Counted from the first letter of the stretch, positions 23,089 to 57,662 are shown. The stretch is 64,000 nt of DNA from Bradymonadia bacterium (GCA_046290225.1 JBKAGE010000072.1:35764-99763), one strand, 5' to 3'. Numbers and translations are program-made. The notes: a model not told the origin generated them from the letters alone.

Positions 23089-24717
23089 ATGAGACTCACC
23101 CGTATTCAGGGGATGACCTTCGGGCTGCTCCTCGGCGGCCTCGCCGCTCAAGCCCAGGGCGCACCCGCAGCATCGGAGACCCCGATCAAGAAGGTGCTCG
23201 TACTCTCGGACCGGGCCCAGGTGACCCGCGAGGCAAAGGTGCCATGTACAGATGGCGCCGCCACGGCCCGCTTCTTCCCGCTGCCGGCGACGGTGCAGCT
23301 CGAGAGCGTGCACGCCCAGGGCGCCGGGCAGACCCGAGCTGTGGGCACCGCTCAGCGACAGCGCACCCTCGACGAGGCCATCGATCCCCGAGCTGAGGCC
23401 CTCAAGACCGAGATCATCGCCCTCGATGACGAGATCATGGCCTTGAGCCGACAACTGCAGCGCCTCGACGCGCGGCACAACCTCTCGTCGCAATACAGTG
23501 ATCGCATCGTCGACGCCATCAACGGCCGCATGCTCGACCCCAACGGCAACTGGGATGTACCGGAGTGGGGCCGCAACCTCGATCAGCTCCAGGCGGAGCA
23601 CACAGGCCGTACTCAAGCCATCCTCGATGTGCAGCGCACTCTCAGGGAGAAGCAGCGCGTACTCGATCGCAAGCAGCAGGCCCTCGGCCGTCTGCAAAAC
23701 GGCGCGGGACGCACGGCCCTCGAGGTCGAGGTCAGCGCCAGCTGCAAGGGCCCCCAGGCCAGAGTGCAGCTCTCGTACATCGTCTCCGGTGCTCAGTGGA
23801 AGCCCGAGTATGATCTGCGCTTCGTGCCTCAGAGCAGCGGCTCGAGCAAGGGCACGGTAGAGCTGACGGTGGGCGCCATCATCCAGCAACGTACTGGAGA
23901 AGACTGGGAGGACGCTCAAATCATCCTCTCCAGCGCCCGGCCCCGCCTCGGCGGAGAAGCCCCCAAGCCTGCCCGCCTCAACGTGACGGGCAACAAGGGC
24001 AGCAAGGACAAGGTGCTGGTTCAGGCCCGCGAGCGGCGCGAGAAGCTCGACGCGGGTAACACCCCCACCGACGCGCCTTCCGGCGCCACGCTGGACGACA
24101 AGGGCCAGTCGGTGACCCTCACCCTGCCCCGCCGCATCAGCGTCGCCGCTGATGGCCGCCCTTACTGGGTCCCCGTCGACCTGCGAAAGACCAAGGGGGA
24201 GCAGTTCCTGAGCGTGATCCCCAAGCTGTCCCACCGCGTCTGGCGCAAGGTCCGCTTCAAGAACCCCGCGCCCTATCCGCTCATGGCGGGCCTGACCCAC
24301 GTGTTCCGTGGCGGCGACTACGTAGGCGACACCTCTATCCGCCATCGAGGCCCTGGCGCCCCCATCGAGGTGGCGCTGGGTGTTGACGAGGGCTTCAAGG
24401 TAGAGCGCAAGGCGGCGAACGAGCAGACCCGCAAGCCGGGCATGTTCCAGAGCGCCAAGAAGATGGAGCGCGCCTACGAGATCATCATCGAGCGCAAGGC
24501 CCGAGGCTCGGCAAAGCTGGAGATCACCGAGAACCTGCCGCTGAGCCGAGTGGACAAGGTGAAGGTGGATCTCGACAAGAAGGGCACGACGCCGGGTTAC
24601 TCGATCGACAAGGATCGCGGCTTCATCACGTGGCCTCTCAAGCTGAAGGCCAACGAGAAGGAGACGATCTCGCTGAGCTACACGATCCGCCTCCCCGACG
24701 ACTGGAAGGTACAGTAG
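23089..24717 (+). CDS. DUF4139/MuiA-family secreted protein (paralogue of upstream gene)
   Basis: Signal peptide. VLVLSDRAQVTREAKV and TGEDWEDAQIILSSARP. Same architecture as 20940..23078, 10 nt downstream. Confidence 0.65.
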   Translation: MRLTRIQGMTFGLLLGGLAAQAQGAPAASETPIKKVLVLSDRAQVTREAKVPCTDGAATARFFPLPATVQLESVHAQGAGQTRAVGTAQRQRTLDEAIDPRAEALKTEIIALDDEIMALSRQLQRLDARHNLSSQYSDRIVDAINGRMLDPNGNWDVPEWGRNLDQLQAEHTGRTQAILDVQRTLREKQRVLDRKQQALGRLQNGAGRTALEVEVSASCKGPQARVQLSYIVSGAQWKPEYDLRFVPQSSGSSKGTVELTVGAIIQQRTGEDWEDAQIILSSARPRLGGEAPKPARLNVTGNKGSKDKVLVQARERREKLDAGNTPTDAPSGATLDDKGQSVTLTLPRRISVAADGRPYWVPVDLRKTKGEQFLSVIPKLSHRVWRKVRFKNPAPYPLMAGLTHVFRGGDYVGDTSIRHRGPGAPIEVALGVDEGFKVERKAANEQTRKPGMFQSAKKMERAYEIIIERKARGSAKLEITENLPLSRVDKVKVDLDKKGTTPGYSIDKDRGFITWPLKLKANEKETISLSYTIRLPDDWKVQ

Positions 24718-24855
24718 CTCCGACGCTCCGGCGGCGTCAGCCGTCGTGAGCGCGGCGATTTCACGCACAGCTGCGGCGGGCAAATGCTCGACGCAGCGCT
24801 GCTGCGCCTGCGCTTTCCCCACCACAGCTGCACGCGAACTCACCACGCTCACGAC

Positions 24856-25005
24856 GACTGCCGCCACCTCCGCGTCTCCGCGGGGCACGTGCACAGGTGG
24901 GTTATGGCTTTGTTGGGCTCTTTGGGACTTCTGACTGCCGCCACCTCCGCGCCTCCGCGGGGCACGCGCATGGGTGGGTTATGGCTTTGTTGGATTGGAG
25001 TGGGG
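24856..25005. repeat. ~77-bp direct duplication
   Basis: GACTGCCGCCACCTCCGCG(T/C)CTCCGCGGGGCACG(T/C)GCA...GGTGGGTTATGGCTTTGTTGG occurs twice in tandem, at 24856-24932 and 24933-~25005. Confidence 0.7.
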
Positions 25006-26502
25006 CTGTTGGGGTTGACGGCTTGTTTTGATGGCATATGAGGGTGACTTGCGAGATGTGGTCGGTATGGCTCCCTGCCATTTCAGGGTTATCGTGTCTC
25101 TTACATTTACTCACACCGACAATACATACAAAAAATGCCTTCGATCACTGGCACTTACAAAAAAGTCGACAAAATGTCACATAAGGGCTTGATCACTGCT
25201 GACGAGGTGACTAACAATTCTCTTCGTAGGGTTGAGGTTGGCTCTACGGAACACCACCTCCCTTCAGAAACACCAAACAATTTGCACTGATACTCCTAGG
25301 AGAATTGGCGTGTCTTGTTCTGGTGCATGTGCATGTAACCTGTAGGGTGTTGTGGCTGACTCACATCAACCGTGGCACACATGCAATGCATGTATATTTG
25401 ATGGGATTCGAGCGTACACACACCAAAACTGCAGACCTCGTGTTGGCAAGATGGAGTGAAAGAAACAACCGGCTCTTGGACCAGGACCTCGCGTCTTGTG
25501 CTCAGGTTCATCGTTTCTTGTACGTAGACAGCCTTATTTGCTCAATGACAGGTGCTTGCACCTGTACCCTTCTCAAGGGTGTGGATTGATGCCCTCTGTG
25601 GGGCCGCATTTCAGTCCTTTCGGGGATTGGCTACAGAACTCATCCAATGGGCCATGTAGGCGGTGCTGCTTGGACACAGACAGACCTGAAGGCATGAGCA
25701 GGTAAGTGGTGGATGGTGGATACGATGGTTGGGTTTACCCAGTTGACGTACTGCCAGTCAGGCCTGAGTTCAGGCCATGAGCGCACATGATGGCGAACGC
25801 TCCACATATGTGAGGTGGGTCGCCATGATGGGCATGAGAGCACACATGCATACAGAAACATTCTGCTTTCGGGTGGATGAGTATGTATGCACATATGTCT
25901 CTGACATCGGTTCGCACGTGAGGTCGAAGGTCCCCCTTCAACCAAACTGGCGAGTACATTGATGACAGAGTCGAGGAGAGAACGACACGGAGAGAGGCGT
26001 CTTGGGTCAGAATACGTGCACATAGATGGCGAATAGACATCGTGCGCCCTGACCTTTGCCGAGCGTGTATTGACTCATCTCAGGTTCGACCTGTCGAGTT
26101 TGAGAGTTGAAGCACTCGTCAATGCTGCACATTCGACCCCGAGCAGATGTATTCCATATATCGGTTTGATGGTTCGTGTGGCACTGATGGCTTCAGGGTT
26201 CATCACACTCATTGGCCCGAAGGTGCCTTGTAAAACTGTTTGATTCAGAGACGCGAACGCGTACTGCACGTGCCGGCTTCAAGCCATGCACCTGTGCCCA
26301 CCTTTCGGGGTGCGGTGTGGGGCGACGGTGAGGGCAGGTATGGTCTGGCGTCGATGTCTGGCTCTTCACGGAGAAAGGCAGCGGCGGTCACCCATGACCA
26401 GCAGCATGCATTCAGGCGCTTTGGAGAGGTTTTACGAGGATGTAAGGTCAGAGAGCTGTGGTGCCAGGCGACTGGGGTTGCCACACGAGACGGTCGTGAT
26501 GC

Positions 26503-26590
26503 GAGACAGAAACACCTCGAGACAGAAACACCTCGAGACAGAAACACCTCGAGACAGAAACACCTCGAGACAGAAACACCCTGAGACAGG
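26503..26590. repeat. tandem repeat, 16-bp unit x ~5.5
   Basis: GAGACAGAAACACCTC repeated contiguously. No unique spacers, so it is not CRISPR-like. Confidence 0.9.
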
Positions 26591-26663
26591 AGCACCGCGG
26601 GACAGTCAGCTGAAGGGCTTGCCTTGATGATGACAGTTTCGACACAGCCCCTGCCTTGAGAGA

Positions 26664-26745
26664 GTGACTGCCTCGAAAAAGTGACTGCCTCGAAAAAGTG
26701 ACTGCCTCAAAAAAGTGACTGCCTCAAAAAAGTGACTGCCTTGAG
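26664..26745. repeat. tandem repeat, 17-bp unit x ~4.5
   Basis: GTGACTGCCTC(G/A)AAAAA repeated. Flanked on both sides by GCCTTGAGAGAG(T/C)GACTG. Confidence 0.9.
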
Positions 26746-27515
26746 AGAGCGACTGACCCTCGAGTGTGCAATTGACTGAGACATGACACATTCGGAATGC
26801 ACGATCAGCGACGACAGGCAACCTTGCCAGGCACATCGTCAGATGTGCACCCAAGCCCAGTCGAGGCCGAGCGCACTGCAGCAATGCAGCGCCATCAGTC
26901 GCCCCTGAGCGAGAGTGTACGACTGATGTCTGGTGACAGTCCGGAGCCGCTGATAGCAGAGACGGCGTGAAAGCGCTGTTCAGCTGGCCCCTCCTCGGAG
27001 GTGACCAGTCTTCTGTCACGGAGCCGGCGCGGTGGCCTTCCCTTTCAGGGCCGGCCGCTGAAACGGTGCCTGCGCAGAGTGCGACGTTTCTCGAAGACCA
27101 CGCGACGGCGTGGGCAACTCGACGGACAGACGACCCGAGGCTTCGGTTTTGGGCAGACGGTCTAGAGAGCGCCTCGCCATACACATACAGCCCTGCTTTC
27201 GGGTGTGGCGGTGTGTTGTGCTGGTCGACATTCAGAACGCTGAGGCGTGTTTGCAGGGTACCATGCGGCACACTTTGGCAACTCTGACGTGACTGTTCTT
27301 CTGCACTGTACTTTCACGGGGCGCCTTCGGGCCTCTGTAGGGTGCGGTGCCTTCGAGTGCTCATCCTGAGAATGGGTGTGTTTGCCTTTGGGCCAGATGC
27401 ATCGATTCGAGGGCCTGCCAGCGTTGATGGCTCTCTCTGGTTTGATGTTCCGCCAACCTCAGCCCGTTTTTTCTTTCTCTACCCCCCTTTGCCTTTGCGT
27501 GTCGCTTGAGCCATC

Positions 27516-28823
27516 GTGTCGCTCACGATGACATCACCATCACTCCACATCGCAGTTCTGGGTGCCGGCTTTGCCGGATGTGCAACCGCCATTCATCTGG
27601 GCGCACTGGGCCACCGCGTCACCTTGATCGAACGCGTGCCCGAGCCTGCCCCCGTGGGCGCCGGCATCATCGTGCAACCCACGGGCATGCATGCCCTGAG
27701 CACCATGAGCGCGCTCAGCGAGGTGCTTCGTCTCGGAGAACCCCTCACCGCTTTGTGGTGTCAAGGGCATCGCGGCCAGGCGATCCTCGATTTGCCCTAT
27801 GCGCACCTGCATCCCGAGCTCTTTGGTTTGGGTTTGCACCGTGGTGCTCTCTTCGAAGTGCTCTTTGATCGGGCCCGCGCGCTCTCTGAGCGTGTGTGCT
27901 GCGGTCTGGAGGTCAGCAGGCTGCGCCCTGCGGACATTGGCGGCTCTCCTCGGTGGCACCTCGAAGACAAGGCTGGTCGTCGCTTGCCTGATCCCGACAC
28001 GCCAGCCTTCGATCTCGTCGTGGTGGCCACGGGGGGCAGCACCCTGCTCGAAGGCGGACCTCGCCTCAAACGCTCCGTGAAGGTGTACCCCTGGGGAGCG
28101 CTCTGGGCGGTGTTGCCTGATCCAGGTGGGCCTCACCTCCCTGCTGAAGGCGGACGCCTGTTCCAGGTGGCCCGGGGCACTCACACGCTGTTCGGGCTGT
28201 TGCCCAGTGGGGCCTTGTCGGGTGCGCCATCAAAGAAGACCGTCAGCCTGTTCTGGAGCCTGCCCCTCGATGCATATGATGGCTGGCGCACCCGCGGGCT
28301 GGCGGACTGGCGTCAACGCGTCTTGTCGTTGTGCCCGGAGTCCGAGCCCGTCATCGACCTCATCGAATCACCTGAGCAGTTGCTCCTGGCCCGTTACCGC
28401 GATGTGCGCATGAAGCCCTGGGGGCGAGATGGCGTGCTCTACATCGGCGACGCCGCCCACGCCACCAGCCCCCAGTTGGGCCAGGGCACCAACCTCGCCC
28501 TCATGGACGCAGTGGCCCTCGGTACGGCGATGGCGTCACTCACCGATGCCGACGCTCTCCCCGCTGTGCTCGCACACTATCATCAGCTGCGGCGTGCCCA
28601 CCTGCGCTGGTATCAGCGGGCCACACGATGGCTCACGCCGCTGTTTCAGTCGAACCTGCGCCCCATTGGCCCACTGCGAGATCTCGCTCTCGGCCTCGGT
28701 GGTCGGATCCCGTACATCCGCCGTCAGATGCTGGCCACGATGTCAGGGGTGAAGCTCGGTACCCTGTGGCCGAGCATCCCCCTGAAACCCATCGTGAAAT
28801 CCATCACGCATGATAAGTCTTGA
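27516..28823 (+). CDS. FAD-dependent monooxygenase (UbiH/salicylate-hydroxylase-like)
   Basis: N-terminal dinucleotide fold IAVLGAGFAGCATA. Second FAD site YIGDAAHATSPQLGQGTNLALMDA. Confidence 0.8.
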   Translation: MSLTMTSPSLHIAVLGAGFAGCATAIHLGALGHRVTLIERVPEPAPVGAGIIVQPTGMHALSTMSALSEVLRLGEPLTALWCQGHRGQAILDLPYAHLHPELFGLGLHRGALFEVLFDRARALSERVCCGLEVSRLRPADIGGSPRWHLEDKAGRRLPDPDTPAFDLVVVATGGSTLLEGGPRLKRSVKVYPWGALWAVLPDPGGPHLPAEGGRLFQVARGTHTLFGLLPSGALSGAPSKKTVSLFWSLPLDAYDGWRTRGLADWRQRVLSLCPESEPVIDLIESPEQLLLARYRDVRMKPWGRDGVLYIGDAAHATSPQLGQGTNLALMDAVALGTAMASLTDADALPAVLAHYHQLRRAHLRWYQRATRWLTPLFQSNLRPIGPLRDLALGLGGRIPYIRRQMLATMSGVKLGTLWPSIPLKPIVKSITHDKS

Positions 28824-46495: not shown

Positions 46496-46523
46496 CTCTC
46501 TGTTGGGGGGCGCTCCGCGGGCA

Positions 46524-46790
46524 AGAGAGTTTTTCGGGCACGGGCACGGGCACGGGCACGGGCACGAGTTTTACGGATGTGGACAGTGCAGCCTGAGGCT
46601 GCATGTCTTGGAGCGAGTGGAGGTCGGCGTAGCTGGCCGGAGGGAGCGGAAAGACACCCGGAGGGCTGTCCACTGTTTGGCCTGACAGTGCAGCCTGAGG
46701 CTGCATGTCTTGGAGCGAGTGTAGGCCTGCGTAGCTGGCCGGAGGGAGCGGAAAGACACCCGTAGGGCTGGCCACTGTTCGACCTTGGAC
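46524..46790. repeat. left inverted-repeat arm flanking four-helix-bundle gene
   Basis: Contains (CACGGG)5 and two tandem ~87-bp subunits, each with the hairpin TGCAGCC-TGA-GGCTGCA. Near-perfect reverse complement of 47298-47580. Confidence 0.85.
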
Positions 46791-46830
46791 TCGTGACCCA
46801 GTGAGGGGTCAAAGCTGTATGTTGGGTTGA

Positions 46831-47184
46831 CTATGAGGCTCGACTGGCCATCTTGATGAGCATGGCCACGACATCTACGAGCAGTGATTTGCCATCTTGT
46901 GCCCGCTCAGCTCGGCCAAGCCGAAGCATATGCAGACAATCCAAGACCGCAGCACACTCCGTAGCCGATCTCTTGGCCATCCGATAAAAACGACTCTTCT
47001 CAGCCTTTGAGAACTCGCCAGCTCCTTCCGCAATGTTCAGCACTACAGACAAAGACGCACGTCTCAATTGATCTGAGAGATACGCCCTTCCTGTAGGCAG
47101 TTGACGACAGAGTTCATCAGACAACACCAAAAACTCGAGCGACTTGCGGTAGACATCCAACCTCTCGTGATCAAGACAGCTCAT
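46831..47184 (-). CDS. four-helix-bundle protein (23S rRNA intervening-sequence protein family, TIGR02436/PF05635)
   Basis: ATG at 47184 preceded by GGAGG. 117 aa. LDVYRKSLEF...SDQLRRASLSVVLNIAEGAGEFSKAEKSRFYRMAKRSATE matches the family consensus (QL.RAA.S...NIAEG.G). Lower GC than surroundings. Confidence 0.7.
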   Translation of the reverse strand: MSCLDHERLDVYRKSLEFLVLSDELCRQLPTGRAYLSDQLRRASLSVVLNIAEGAGEFSKAEKSRFYRMAKRSATECAAVLDCLHMLRLGRAERAQDGKSLLVDVVAMLIKMASRAS

Positions 47185-47297
47185 ATGACCTCCAATGCTG
47201 GTTCTCATTGGGTCTACATCCGAGGGTGCTGATGCCTTCCACCAAAATTGACCCATACCAAGGATCGCCCCCCCTCATCACGCACAGGTTTGACCCC

Positions 47298-47580
47298 TCA
47301 CCGGGCCATGGGTCCAGGGTCGAACAGTGGCCAGCCCTCCGGGTGTCTTTCCGCTCCCTCCGGCCAGCTACGCAGGCCTAAACTCGCTCCAAGACATGCA
47401 GCCTCAGGCTGCACTGTCAGGCCAAACAGTGGACAGCCCTCCGGGTGTCTTTCCGCTCCCTCCGGCCGGCTACGCCGCCCTCCACTCGCTCCAAGACATG
47501 CAGCCTCAGGCTGCACTGTCCACACCCGTAAAACTCGTGCCCGTGCCCGTGCCCGTGCCCGTGCCCGAAAACTCTCTCAC
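47298..47580. repeat. right inverted-repeat arm flanking four-helix-bundle gene
   Basis: Reverse complement of 46524-46790, including (CCCGTG)5. Confidence 0.85.
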
Positions 47581-47721
47581 CCGCGGAGCGCCCCCCAAAG
47601 AACCAAAACCTCTCACCTCCCCCTTCCTGCGATATAATCCCCACCCATTGAGCCAGTCTGCCCCTCAATCCCGTACCGAGGCACGGGTTGTGGCGACGGC
47701 GAACACGCAGGGAGACACTGC

Positions 47722-56871: not shown

Positions 56872-56956
56872 GCGAAGGTGGCGGAATTGGTAGACGCGCT
56901 AGGTTGAGGGCCTAGTGTCCGCTTAGGACGTGGGGGTTCGACTCCCCCCCTTCGCA
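56872..56956 (+). tRNA. tRNA-Leu (anticodon GAG)
   Basis: Class II tRNA, 85 nt. Sequence GCGAAGG TG GCGG AATTGGTAGA CGCG C TAGG TTGAGGG CCTAG T GTCCGCTTAGGAC GT GGGGG TTCGACT CCCCC CCTTCGC A. Near-identical D arm, T arm and acceptor to E. coli tRNA-Leu. CCA not encoded. Confidence 0.85.
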
Positions 56957-56963
56957 CTCCTGA

Positions 56964-57000: not shown

Positions 57001-57080
57001 TCGAACCTTGGAATTGCCTTGGACGACAACTCGCCTGCCCGATGACGTCCACTTGTGATTGAAGATTGCTGCTGAGCCTT

Positions 57081-57554
57081 TGTAGGCTGTCATCGCTGCG
57101 CTCTGCCTGCGTAGGCACCCGGTCTTCGGCAACCCTTCGGGCCGCCTCGTCGGTCGCGTACACGTCGGCGGGCTCGCTGTCGCGAGCAGGCCTCCGGGTA
57201 GGCAGGGTCGCTCAATGCTGACGCATTGATTGCTCGCTCCCCTGCGTAAAAAGTCAGTTCTGGTGTGGCTTTGGGGGTACTTTCAACGCTATTGGGGCTT
57301 ACGCCGAACGTTTGATGTTCAGAAGCTTGTACGTTCGCGGCAGGTCGAGTGCCGGCAGACATCAGCAACAAGATACAGAAGAAGCTCTTTACGCAGGGGA
57401 GCGAGCGAATAAGGCGAAGCCTTGAGCGACCCTGCTTACCCGGAGGCCTGCTCGCTTCAGCGAGCGTGGCGACGTGTACGCAGCTCCAAGGCGGGCCGAA
57501 GGCCGGCCGTCGGCAGCTGCCTACGCAGGCGGAGCGCAGCGACGACTGCCTACA
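57081..57554. repeat. MITE-like long-hairpin repeat element, copy B
   Basis: Same family as 40311-40848 (GTAGGCTGTCATCGCTGCGCTCTGCCTGCGTAGGC... and its reverse complement). Shorter variant lacking ~20 bp at each end. Lies between the tRNA-Leu terminator and the secG 3' end. Confidence 0.75.
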
Positions 57555-57662
57555 AGGGCCCATCGCACAGGCTCGACCTCAGCTCTCGTATGGAGGTCAG
57601 CACCAGAGACAAACACCTATGGCCCAAGCGCTATACATGAAGATTTTTGGAAGAGCCCAATA

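Follow-up and report, generated by a model that had tools for sequence, protein, structure and literature searches.

In a 64,000-nucleotide (nt) stretch of DNA from a Bradymonadia bacterium, which we call the window and from whose first nucleotide all coordinates are counted, a large gene-free island lies between the second of two DUF4139 genes and a flavin adenine dinucleotide (FAD) monooxygenase gene. We propose that the island is a plus-strand gene, single-copy in the window and vertically inherited, that runs from promoter to terminator and specifies a long noncoding RNA, structured and fast-evolving; we put the probability of this reading at about three in four. The evidence comprises the absence of coding capacity, synteny with a relative, a conserved promoter-like block, complementarity between the 5' and 3' ends, strand-specific substitutions that preserve base pairs, and the identical ends of independent contigs. 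The initial annotation of this DNA had offered three candidates, and the long noncoding RNA locus is the one that the evidence supports. Bradymonadia (Myxococcota) are a little-studied predatory lineage, and the present bacterium is marine. Its flanking DUF4139 protein is 100% identical to one from a metagenome-assembled Bradymonadia bacterium. The short reads of the sample from which the window organism, W, derives (SRR22269038) came from the phycosphere in a Skeletonema tropicum (diatom) culture (PMC9872673). Two relatives, species B and species C, were compared with W.

The window is densely coding, with a GC content of 64.7%. The gap (24718-27527, 2810 nt) begins directly after the stop codon of the second DUF4139 gene (24717) and ends at the probable start of the FAD monooxygenase gene. 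It is the largest gene-free gap in the 64 kb and the only one above 1.2 kb, the runners-up measuring 916, 1053, and 1142 nt, and the initial observation of a gene-free 2.8 kb is confirmed. It is also the only sustained low-GC stretch. The fall in GC that had been reported, from about 70% to 40-50%, is real but was somewhat overstated: the flanking genes lie at about 0.63-0.72 and the low part, across about 25000-26900, at 0.44-0.56, while the leftmost 280 nt or so (24718-25000) are not low at all (0.62-0.66) and the final 700 nt are at 0.57-0.64. Averaged over 24718-27527, GC is 0.558, compared with 0.655 for the coding DNA of the window, and the other intergenic DNA of the window ranges from 0.44 to 0.66, which spans the island value. 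The composition of the island is that of non-coding DNA and not of foreign DNA. The earlier phrase "compositionally foreign" was not sustained, since the GC lies within the range of the other non-coding DNA and a relative carries an island at the same syntenic site. The low GC can be explained because the high GC of this genome sits mainly at third codon positions, which a noncoding RNA gene does not have.

The initial annotation had also raised the possibility of a chimeric assembly. Independent short-read contigs from the sample of W match the window without a difference as far as 24726 and from 26712 on, and one of them continues through the right boundary of the island into the FAD monooxygenase gene without a repeat break. 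The right-hand contig break at 26712 falls within a 17-nt tandem array. Both junctions are supported by independent assemblies.

Protein-coding capacity is absent from the island. The three-base periodicity of GC is lost over 24840-27480, where the spread is at most 0.14 compared with 0.2-0.5 in genes. The longest open reading frame (ORF), of 221 amino acids (aa) on the minus strand (26606-27271), has a flat GC content by codon position (0.63/0.55/0.59), and its substitutions relative to a relative are spread evenly over the codon positions (24/30/26). Neither the ORFs of the island nor its six-frame translations matched Pfam at an E value of 1 or below, and an ORF of 127 aa returned no record on look-up. 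The earlier statement that the island holds no credible ORF is confirmed by these results. When the 221-aa ORF was compared with 1.8 billion representative proteins, it matched only the noncoding locus in species C, and no gene remnant was found. A pseudogene or decayed gene was rejected on the empty six-frame Pfam search and on species B, which has no gene at this position; the related genomes carry no intact gene here, which the initial annotation had named as the finding that would overturn it. No small conserved ORF or peptide after the predicted start site is common to W and B.

An Rfam search had been suggested from the start; against Rfam 15, including OLE, GOLLD, ROOL, HEARO, small-subunit (SSU) and large-subunit (LSU) rRNA, RNase P, tmRNA, 6S, and group I and II introns, the stretch 24500-27700 had no match at an E value of 5 or below, and a tRNA-Leu was the only match at the gathering threshold in the entire window. 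The island of species B gave two chance-level Rfam matches (E values of 2.4 and 4.3), far under the gathering threshold. A blastn search of a plasmid collection found no match. Of two scans of viral collections, one returned matches only in the number expected by chance and the other returned none. A metagenome scan with a conserved 20-mer produced a single match, by chance, within an efflux-adaptor gene.

The only close homolog of the second DUF4139 protein in the protein collection is 71% identical and comes from species B, whose cluster members lie on long contigs (L004 and L037-L042) from several samples. On six contigs from six samples the order in species B is ECH, DUF4139-1, DUF4139-2, a 1.94-kb gene-free gap, MscS, DUF432, and PAS-GGDEF, which is the order of the window minus the FAD monooxygenase gene and a gene for a protein like the major vault protein (MVP). 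The gap in species B has a GC content of 0.58, compared with 0.70 in the sequence upstream of it, and contains no credible ORF. More distant relatives, at 46% identity, have another downstream neighbour and no gap, and a scan of a genome collection with DUF4139-2 returned only a Leptospirales locus at 27% identity.

W and B can be aligned at one place only (window 25130-25247 with L037 11740-11862). The promoter-like block in this segment (25130-25218, plus strand) is 79% identical between W and B over 91 nt, exact at both hexamers and variable in the spacer and the discriminator, with a substitution pattern that is not codon-like, since it shows no preference for third positions. The block contains A-tracts resembling an UP element (25130-25135, 25159-25164, and 25171-25174), a -35 hexamer TTGATC (25189-25194) followed by a variable spacer of 18 nt, and a -10 hexamer AACAAT (25213-25218) that lies within an exact W-B block, ACTAACAATTC, followed by four variable bases. 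Exact hexamers on either side of a scrambled spacer fit a promoter, and the promoter of the tRNA-Leu gene in the window is similar in layout (two A-tracts, TTGACA, and 17 nt). Directly downstream, W and B share an identical 23-mer, CGTAGGGTTGAGGTTGGCTCTAC (25225-25247, plus strand), which is unique in the window and for which 0 occurrences are expected by chance. Transcription is predicted to start at about 25225-25226. The 23-mer can either fold as a local hairpin (GUAGGGUU/GGCUCUAC) or supply the 5' strand of the terminal helix described below; in the minimum-energy fold of species B it forms the local hairpin. A reading of the conserved block as a terminator on the minus strand was rejected, the hairpin being present in species B only.

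One further resemblance of the 5' element was seen. Its segment UAGGGUUGAGG (25227-25237) has eight consecutive bases in common with the anticodon arm of tRNA-Leu(GAG), CUAGGUUGAGGGCCUAG (56903-56919), a likeness that is probably due to chance.

The 5' end of the predicted RNA is complementary to its extreme 3' end. The 5' strand of this terminal helix (25229-25252, plus strand) consists of GGGUUGAGGUUGGC (25229-25242), a 5-nt bulge, and GGAAC (25248-25252), while the 3' strand (27447-27465, plus strand) consists of GUUCC (27447-27451) followed by GCCAACCUCAGCCC (27452-27465), with one U-G wobble. Between 25229-25242 and 27452-27465, 13 of the 14 positions are complementary. No other duplex that the 5' 22-mer could form within 20 kb, on either strand, is better than this helix (-30.2 kcal/mol), and within the transcript the next-best partner reaches -24.8 kcal/mol. 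In species B the best partner of the 5' 22-mer is GAGGCCACCUCAAUCC (L037 13206-13221; -24.9 kcal/mol, compared with -21.0 kcal/mol for the next), and in species C the 3' strands are GCCAACCUCGACCC and GCCAAUCUCGACCC. Each lineage has its own version of the 3' strand (CAGCCC in W, CGACCC in C, AAUC.. in contig C2 of species C, and CAAUCC in B). Departures from perfect complementarity number six, of which four are G-U wobbles of the plus-strand RNA and two, both in species B, are mismatches. In W and in the species C contigs C1 and C2, the terminal helix closes the global minimum-energy fold.

Directly 3' of the helix in W lies a T-run, TTTTTTCTTTCTC (27467-27479, plus strand), where transcription probably terminates. 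Species B has a single plus-strand terminator, a canonical hairpin (L037 13257-13286; -31 kcal/mol, z score -6.8) with a T-rich tail after it, about 1.45 kb downstream and 36 nt beyond the partner of the 5' 22-mer. No short-sRNA (small RNA) terminator common to W and B was found downstream of the 23-mer. Between the species B terminator and the convergent MscS gene, a small ORF encodes a hydrophobic peptide of 41 aa (MRLLSPRRISKAKAPSKRVTLLYVLILLILPPIFSALARAL, L037 13456-13581).

The contigs of species C were reached through the spurious 221-aa ORF, for which the protein search returned one homolog (72% identical) and its cluster mate. The three contigs, L043 (C1; SRR5270431, 2114 nt), L044 (C2; IMG 3300012394, 2085 nt), and L045 (SRR35106448, 2047 nt), derive from three samples and at least two different assemblers and carry no flanking genes. 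Taken as reverse complements, they align with 25237-27466 over its full extent, L043 with an identity of 81% and L044 and L045, in their aligned pieces, with 84-86%. Although L043 and L044 are 3.3% apart and were built by different assemblers, they share the same first base (GTTGGCTCTACGG, window 25237), and the last base is common to all three contigs (...CTCGACCCG, window 27466). The shared ends are 11-12 nt past the predicted start and immediately before the T-run of the window, and the contigs stop 61 nt short of the start position of the FAD monooxygenase gene. On the simplest reading, the species C contigs would be assembled transcripts. A literature search for the accessions of the species C samples found no match.

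The contig ends delimit a putative RNA body at 25237-27466 on the plus strand. Identity between W and C, counted per 50 nt, is four-fold over-dispersed relative to a binomial model: conserved cores reach 92-98% identity (25437-25786, 25987-26086, 26187-26236, and 27037-27086), while variable stretches fall to 64-68% (25287-25386 and 26087-26136). The predicted RNA would be longest in W, at about 2.2 kb, followed by C (2.05-2.11 kb) and B (about 1.4 kb). Searches with protein handles returned no further homolog, and the family comprises three lineages so far.

Selection on base pairing was examined by predicting the structure from one sequence and testing it on the substitutions of the other, with a null in which substitutions were shuffled among positions with the same base. 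On the plus strand, 54-64 pairs were broken between W and C compared with 90-97 expected (z scores of -4.3 to -6.9), and 63-68% of the one-sided changes kept the pair compared with 51-52% expected (z scores of +4.1 to +6.7). On the minus strand, the z scores were -0.8 to -2.7 for broken pairs and -1.8 to about +2 for one-sided changes that kept the pair. This test compares two effective sequences only. RNAalifold, applied to the first 754 nt (the first third), gave 261 pairs, of which 7 carry compensatory double changes, compared with 3.0 ± 1.2 in shuffles and 0-3 in slid controls; an example is the change from U-A to C-G in the hairpin at 25552-25559. Another 39 pairs vary one-sidedly and remain paired. 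Since the RNAalifold structure was derived from the same sequences, the single-sequence test is the cleaner of the two. The results show that secondary structure is kept by selection on the plus strand, while the signal on the minus strand is weak or absent.

Two tandem arrays lie within the putative RNA body on the plus strand. The 16-nt unit CGAGACAGAAACACCT is repeated 6.5 times at 26502-26605, and the 17-nt unit CTGCCTCGAAAAAGTGA 5.4 times at 26651-26741, or six times up to 26755 when the diverged outer units are counted. The initial annotation had reported both arrays, and both are present; its copy numbers and extents needed correction to these values, and the GCCTTGAGAGAGTGACTG said to bracket the second array turned out to be its diverged outer units. 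The 16-nt unit occurs in 6.5 copies in W, about 2.5 in C1, about 1.5 in C2, and none in B, and the 17-nt unit in 5.4 to 6 copies in W, about 3 in C1, about 2 in C2, and none in B. We interpret the arrays as copy-number-variable, slippage-prone expansion segments inside the RNA, and neither as iterons nor as phase switches. A CRISPR array was rejected, the units of 16 and 17 nt standing head to tail without spacers and no Cas domains occurring in the 10 neighbouring proteins scanned. A DnaA-dependent or iteron-based origin was likewise rejected: the island has no TTATCCACA box (with one mismatch allowed), no rep or dnaA gene is adjacent, and the arrays are missing in species B. The cumulative GC skew, which has no clear switch, was not decisive for an origin.

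The segment that follows the 5' element (CACCTCCCTTCAGAAACACC, 25255-25274) is 80% identical, in register, to the 16-nt repeat unit (CACCTCGAGACAGAAACACC, 26513-26580). In local folds the ACCUC of this segment pairs with GAGGU of the 5' element. The 16-nt array may have grown from a duplicate of the 5' segment.

Taken together, the observations are consistent with the following model. A sigma-70-type promoter with upstream A-tracts (25130-25218) would start transcription at about 25225, and the RNA would extend for about 2.24 kb without a translated ORF. Its first 25 nt would pair with its last 20 nt (25229-25252 with 27447-27465) in a terminal helix that abuts the U-run, where transcription probably ends. 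Judging by the assembled ends in the sister species, the mature molecule may extend from 25237 to 27466; its 5' end would then reflect either a trimming of about 11 nt or an assembly truncation. Many internal helices would be kept by selection, while the primary sequence would turn over fast outside a few cores and the two arrays would expand and contract by slippage.

As to function, a stable scaffold-type RNA, forming the core of a ribonucleoprotein or of an RNA-only assembly, appears likelier than a base-pairing regulator. We also raise, tentatively and with somewhat more doubt than confidence, the possibility that this RNA is the founding member of a new class: stable structured RNAs of 1.4-2.2 kb in Bradymonadia, with a promoter of the stable-RNA type and a 5'-3' terminal helix, abundant enough in situ to be assembled whole from environmental RNA, and serving as the scaffold of an undescribed particle (ribonucleoprotein or RNA-only) in a predatory, diatom-associated bacterium.

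If the proposal is true, a non-ribosomal RNA of 2.2 kb under selection for base pairing would widen the size range of large bacterial noncoding RNAs several-fold. Confirmation that the species C contigs are RNA would make the molecule directly testable, and its ends, cores, and variable segments are already mapped. The approach may also be of use elsewhere, as long, low-GC, gene-free gaps with a conserved promoter block in high-GC genomes can mark RNA genes missed by homology searches, and spurious ORFs on RNA loci can serve as handles for fetching homologous loci from protein databases.

Several observations weigh against an RNA gene. The bodies of the W and C islands show no significant similarity to that of B by blastn, nhmmer, or shared 9-mers, and the comparison is shallow, with three lineages and a body that can be aligned only between W and C. 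Within species B, single-nucleotide polymorphisms (SNPs) in the island amount to 0.7-1.3%, close to the rate at third codon positions (0.8-1.0%), and the 20 SNPs inside the predicted transcript, few for such a test, have no clear pair-preserving pattern. Windows of 150 nt have fold z scores in the island (-0.86) that do not differ from those in the flanking genes (-0.67). The promoter hexamers match the consensus at 8 of 12 positions, below the cut-off of 9 of 12 of the scan tool, and the promoter is therefore a predicted one. There is no local terminator hairpin in the window, and local folding leaves the 3' strand of the terminal helix unpaired; since the helix abuts the U-run with no local hairpin, termination may depend on the long-range helix.

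The unalignable W and B bodies, the SNP density in species B, and the unremarkable fold z scores would all be expected if the island were weakly constrained spacer or junk DNA, a decayed residue of gained and lost genes in which a small functional element at the left end (a promoter, an operator, or a short sRNA) survives. The locus is indeed a synteny break point, with the FAD monooxygenase and MVP-like genes present in W and not in B, and the arrays and short internal repeats resemble neutral slippage. However, spacer DNA leaves unexplained why predicted base pairs are kept between W and C in a strand-specific manner, why conservation is four-fold over-dispersed with cores at 92-98% identity, why three lineages have a 5' end that can pair with the extreme 3' end, and why independent contigs have identical ends. 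In addition, no gene remnant was found in six frames or among the 1.8 billion proteins, and no short-sRNA terminator is shared downstream of the 23-mer. We regard this explanation as unlikely, though the strongest of the alternatives.

The complementary ends could also be the terminal inverted repeats of a non-autonomous mobile DNA element resembling a miniature inverted-repeat transposable element (MITE), the species C contigs then being the collapsed consensus of many copies. Like a MITE, the island is an ORF-free unit of 1.4-2.2 kb bounded by inverted repeats of 14-16 nt (14 bp in W, GGGTTGAGGTTGGC and GCCAACCTCAGCCC), and the species C contigs stop at or near the repeat boundaries and lack flanks. 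Unlike a MITE, it is present in a single copy within the 64-kb window, occupies the same syntenic site in W and B, and has no target-site duplication (CGTA on the left and GTTT on the right). On the left, the contig end (25237) falls within the repeat arm rather than at its outer edge, the short-read contig of W passes the right boundary into the FAD monooxygenase gene, and conservation reaches upstream of the left arm into the promoter-like block. Four of the six arm mismatches across lineages are compatible with G-U pairing on the plus strand only, and the internal substitutions preserve RNA pairing strand-specifically, which a DNA element does not explain. A mobile element is accordingly quite improbable.

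Since the island lies directly upstream of the FAD monooxygenase gene on the same strand, with no separate promoter or Shine-Dalgarno sequence evident before its ATG at 27528, it might instead be a long 5' leader or regulatory region of that gene, with the repeats, whose copy number varies between lineages, acting as a phase-variable or protein-binding switch. The initial annotation had likewise listed a phase-variable regulatory region. Against this reading are species B, which keeps the island but lacks the FAD monooxygenase gene and ends the unit in a strong terminator before a convergent gene, and the species C contigs, which end 61 nt before the FAD start, the U-run separating the RNA from the gene. 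The arrays also lie within the predicted transcript, with about 1.3 kb between them and the promoter and at least 770 nt between them and the next gene downstream. A leader of this kind is very improbable.

A recently acquired foreign island or an assembly chimera, suggested by a GC content below that of the flanking genes and by the breaks of the same-sample contigs at 24726 and 26712, is the least credible of all, given the syntenic counterpart in species B, the collinearity of species C with 25237-27466 at 81-85% identity, a GC within the intergenic range of the window, independent confirmation of both junctions, the position of the right-hand break in the 17-nt array, and the lack of phage or plasmid matches; the decayed horizontally acquired element of the initial annotation was rejected on the same synteny, with a flanking protein only 71% identical, on the lack of a gene remnant, and on borders without an integrase or tRNA gene.

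Other features of the window were noted. Outside the RNA gene, directly after the stop codon of the second DUF4139 gene, is a GC-rich segment (24733-24993) with an imperfect hairpin of 134 nt (24733-24866; -82.3 kcal/mol, z score -6.9) and direct repeats spaced 77 nt apart (24856-24916 and 24933-24993). It is absent in species B, where the promoter block follows the stop codon after only about 60-80 nt. The same-sample short-read contig that ends at 24726 stops just before this hairpin segment. On the other side, the true start of the FAD monooxygenase is probably the ATG at 27528 and not the GTG at 27516. This gene (27528-28823) has a GC content at third codon positions of 0.73, compared with 0.83-0.85 in its neighbours, and no Shine-Dalgarno sequence. 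Its homologs, the best 48% identical, were of no use for synteny on the right flank, and it is absent from the species B locus; it looks like a recent gain.

At 30792-33338 on the minus strand, 3.3 kb from the RNA gene, the MVP-like gene encodes a protein of 848 aa with the Pfam domains Vault_3 and MVP_shoulder. Species B lacks it at the syntenic locus, with DUF432 and PAS-GGDEF adjoining there. A pair of inverted repeats of about 320 nt, 96% complementary, lies at 46503-47598 (arms 46531-46818 and 47284-47571); each arm consists of two tandem units of 102 nt with (CACGGG)n runs at the outer end, the core of 465 nt is lower in GC, and the whole may be an invertible or mobile element. Finally, an imperfect palindrome of about 490 nt (57073-57562), with nested inverted repeats of 45, 64, and 41 nt, occupies gene-free DNA shortly after tRNA-Leu(GAG) (56872-56957) and the strong terminator of that gene.

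Among known systems, the proposed RNA resembles the precursors of rRNA operons in that segments of its 5' leader and 3' trailer pair around a kilobase-sized RNA, in its upstream A-tracts, which are also found in the tRNA promoter of the window, in a GC content well under the average of a high-GC genome, and in an assembled 5' end compatible with the removal of a short leader. Unlike rRNA, it has no SSU or LSU match at an E value of 5 or below, is not universal, and evolves fast, and the assembled ends lack the 2-nt stagger expected of RNase III. CsrB and RsmZ are sponge RNAs that bear repeats with dispersed hairpin-loop motifs. The proposed RNA is likewise noncoding, with repeated short units and rapid turnover between species, but it is far longer, its repeats form two local arrays that are missing in species B, and no binding motif is common to the lineages. 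A search for sponge sites or common motifs found TGATG enriched and strand-biased in the window (14 on the plus strand and 3 on the minus strand) but not in species B (4 and 4), and this line was dropped.

The large bacterial noncoding RNAs OLE, ROOL, and GOLLD are a few hundred nt long. OLE, of about 600 nt, has been described as well conserved (PMC12054373), and cryo-electron microscopy has shown that OLE, ROOL, and GOLLD form homo-oligomeric RNA complexes (PMC12286853). The proposed RNA differs from all three in having no Rfam match, in being about three to four times longer, in being found in only three lineages, and in its variable tandem-repeat expansions. It differs from OLE also in the fast turnover of its sequence, with no detectable similarity between relatives whose flanking protein is 71% identical. 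Like OLE, ROOL, and GOLLD (PMC12286853, PMC12054373), it was first noticed as a long gene-free intergenic region, it is long, non-coding, apparently highly base-paired, and restricted in lineage, and its precise biochemical function is not established, all being candidate scaffolds for ribonucleoprotein or RNA-only assemblies. Judged by its sequence, the predicted RNA matches no described family, and its kind is that of the large structured bacterial noncoding RNAs of unknown function.

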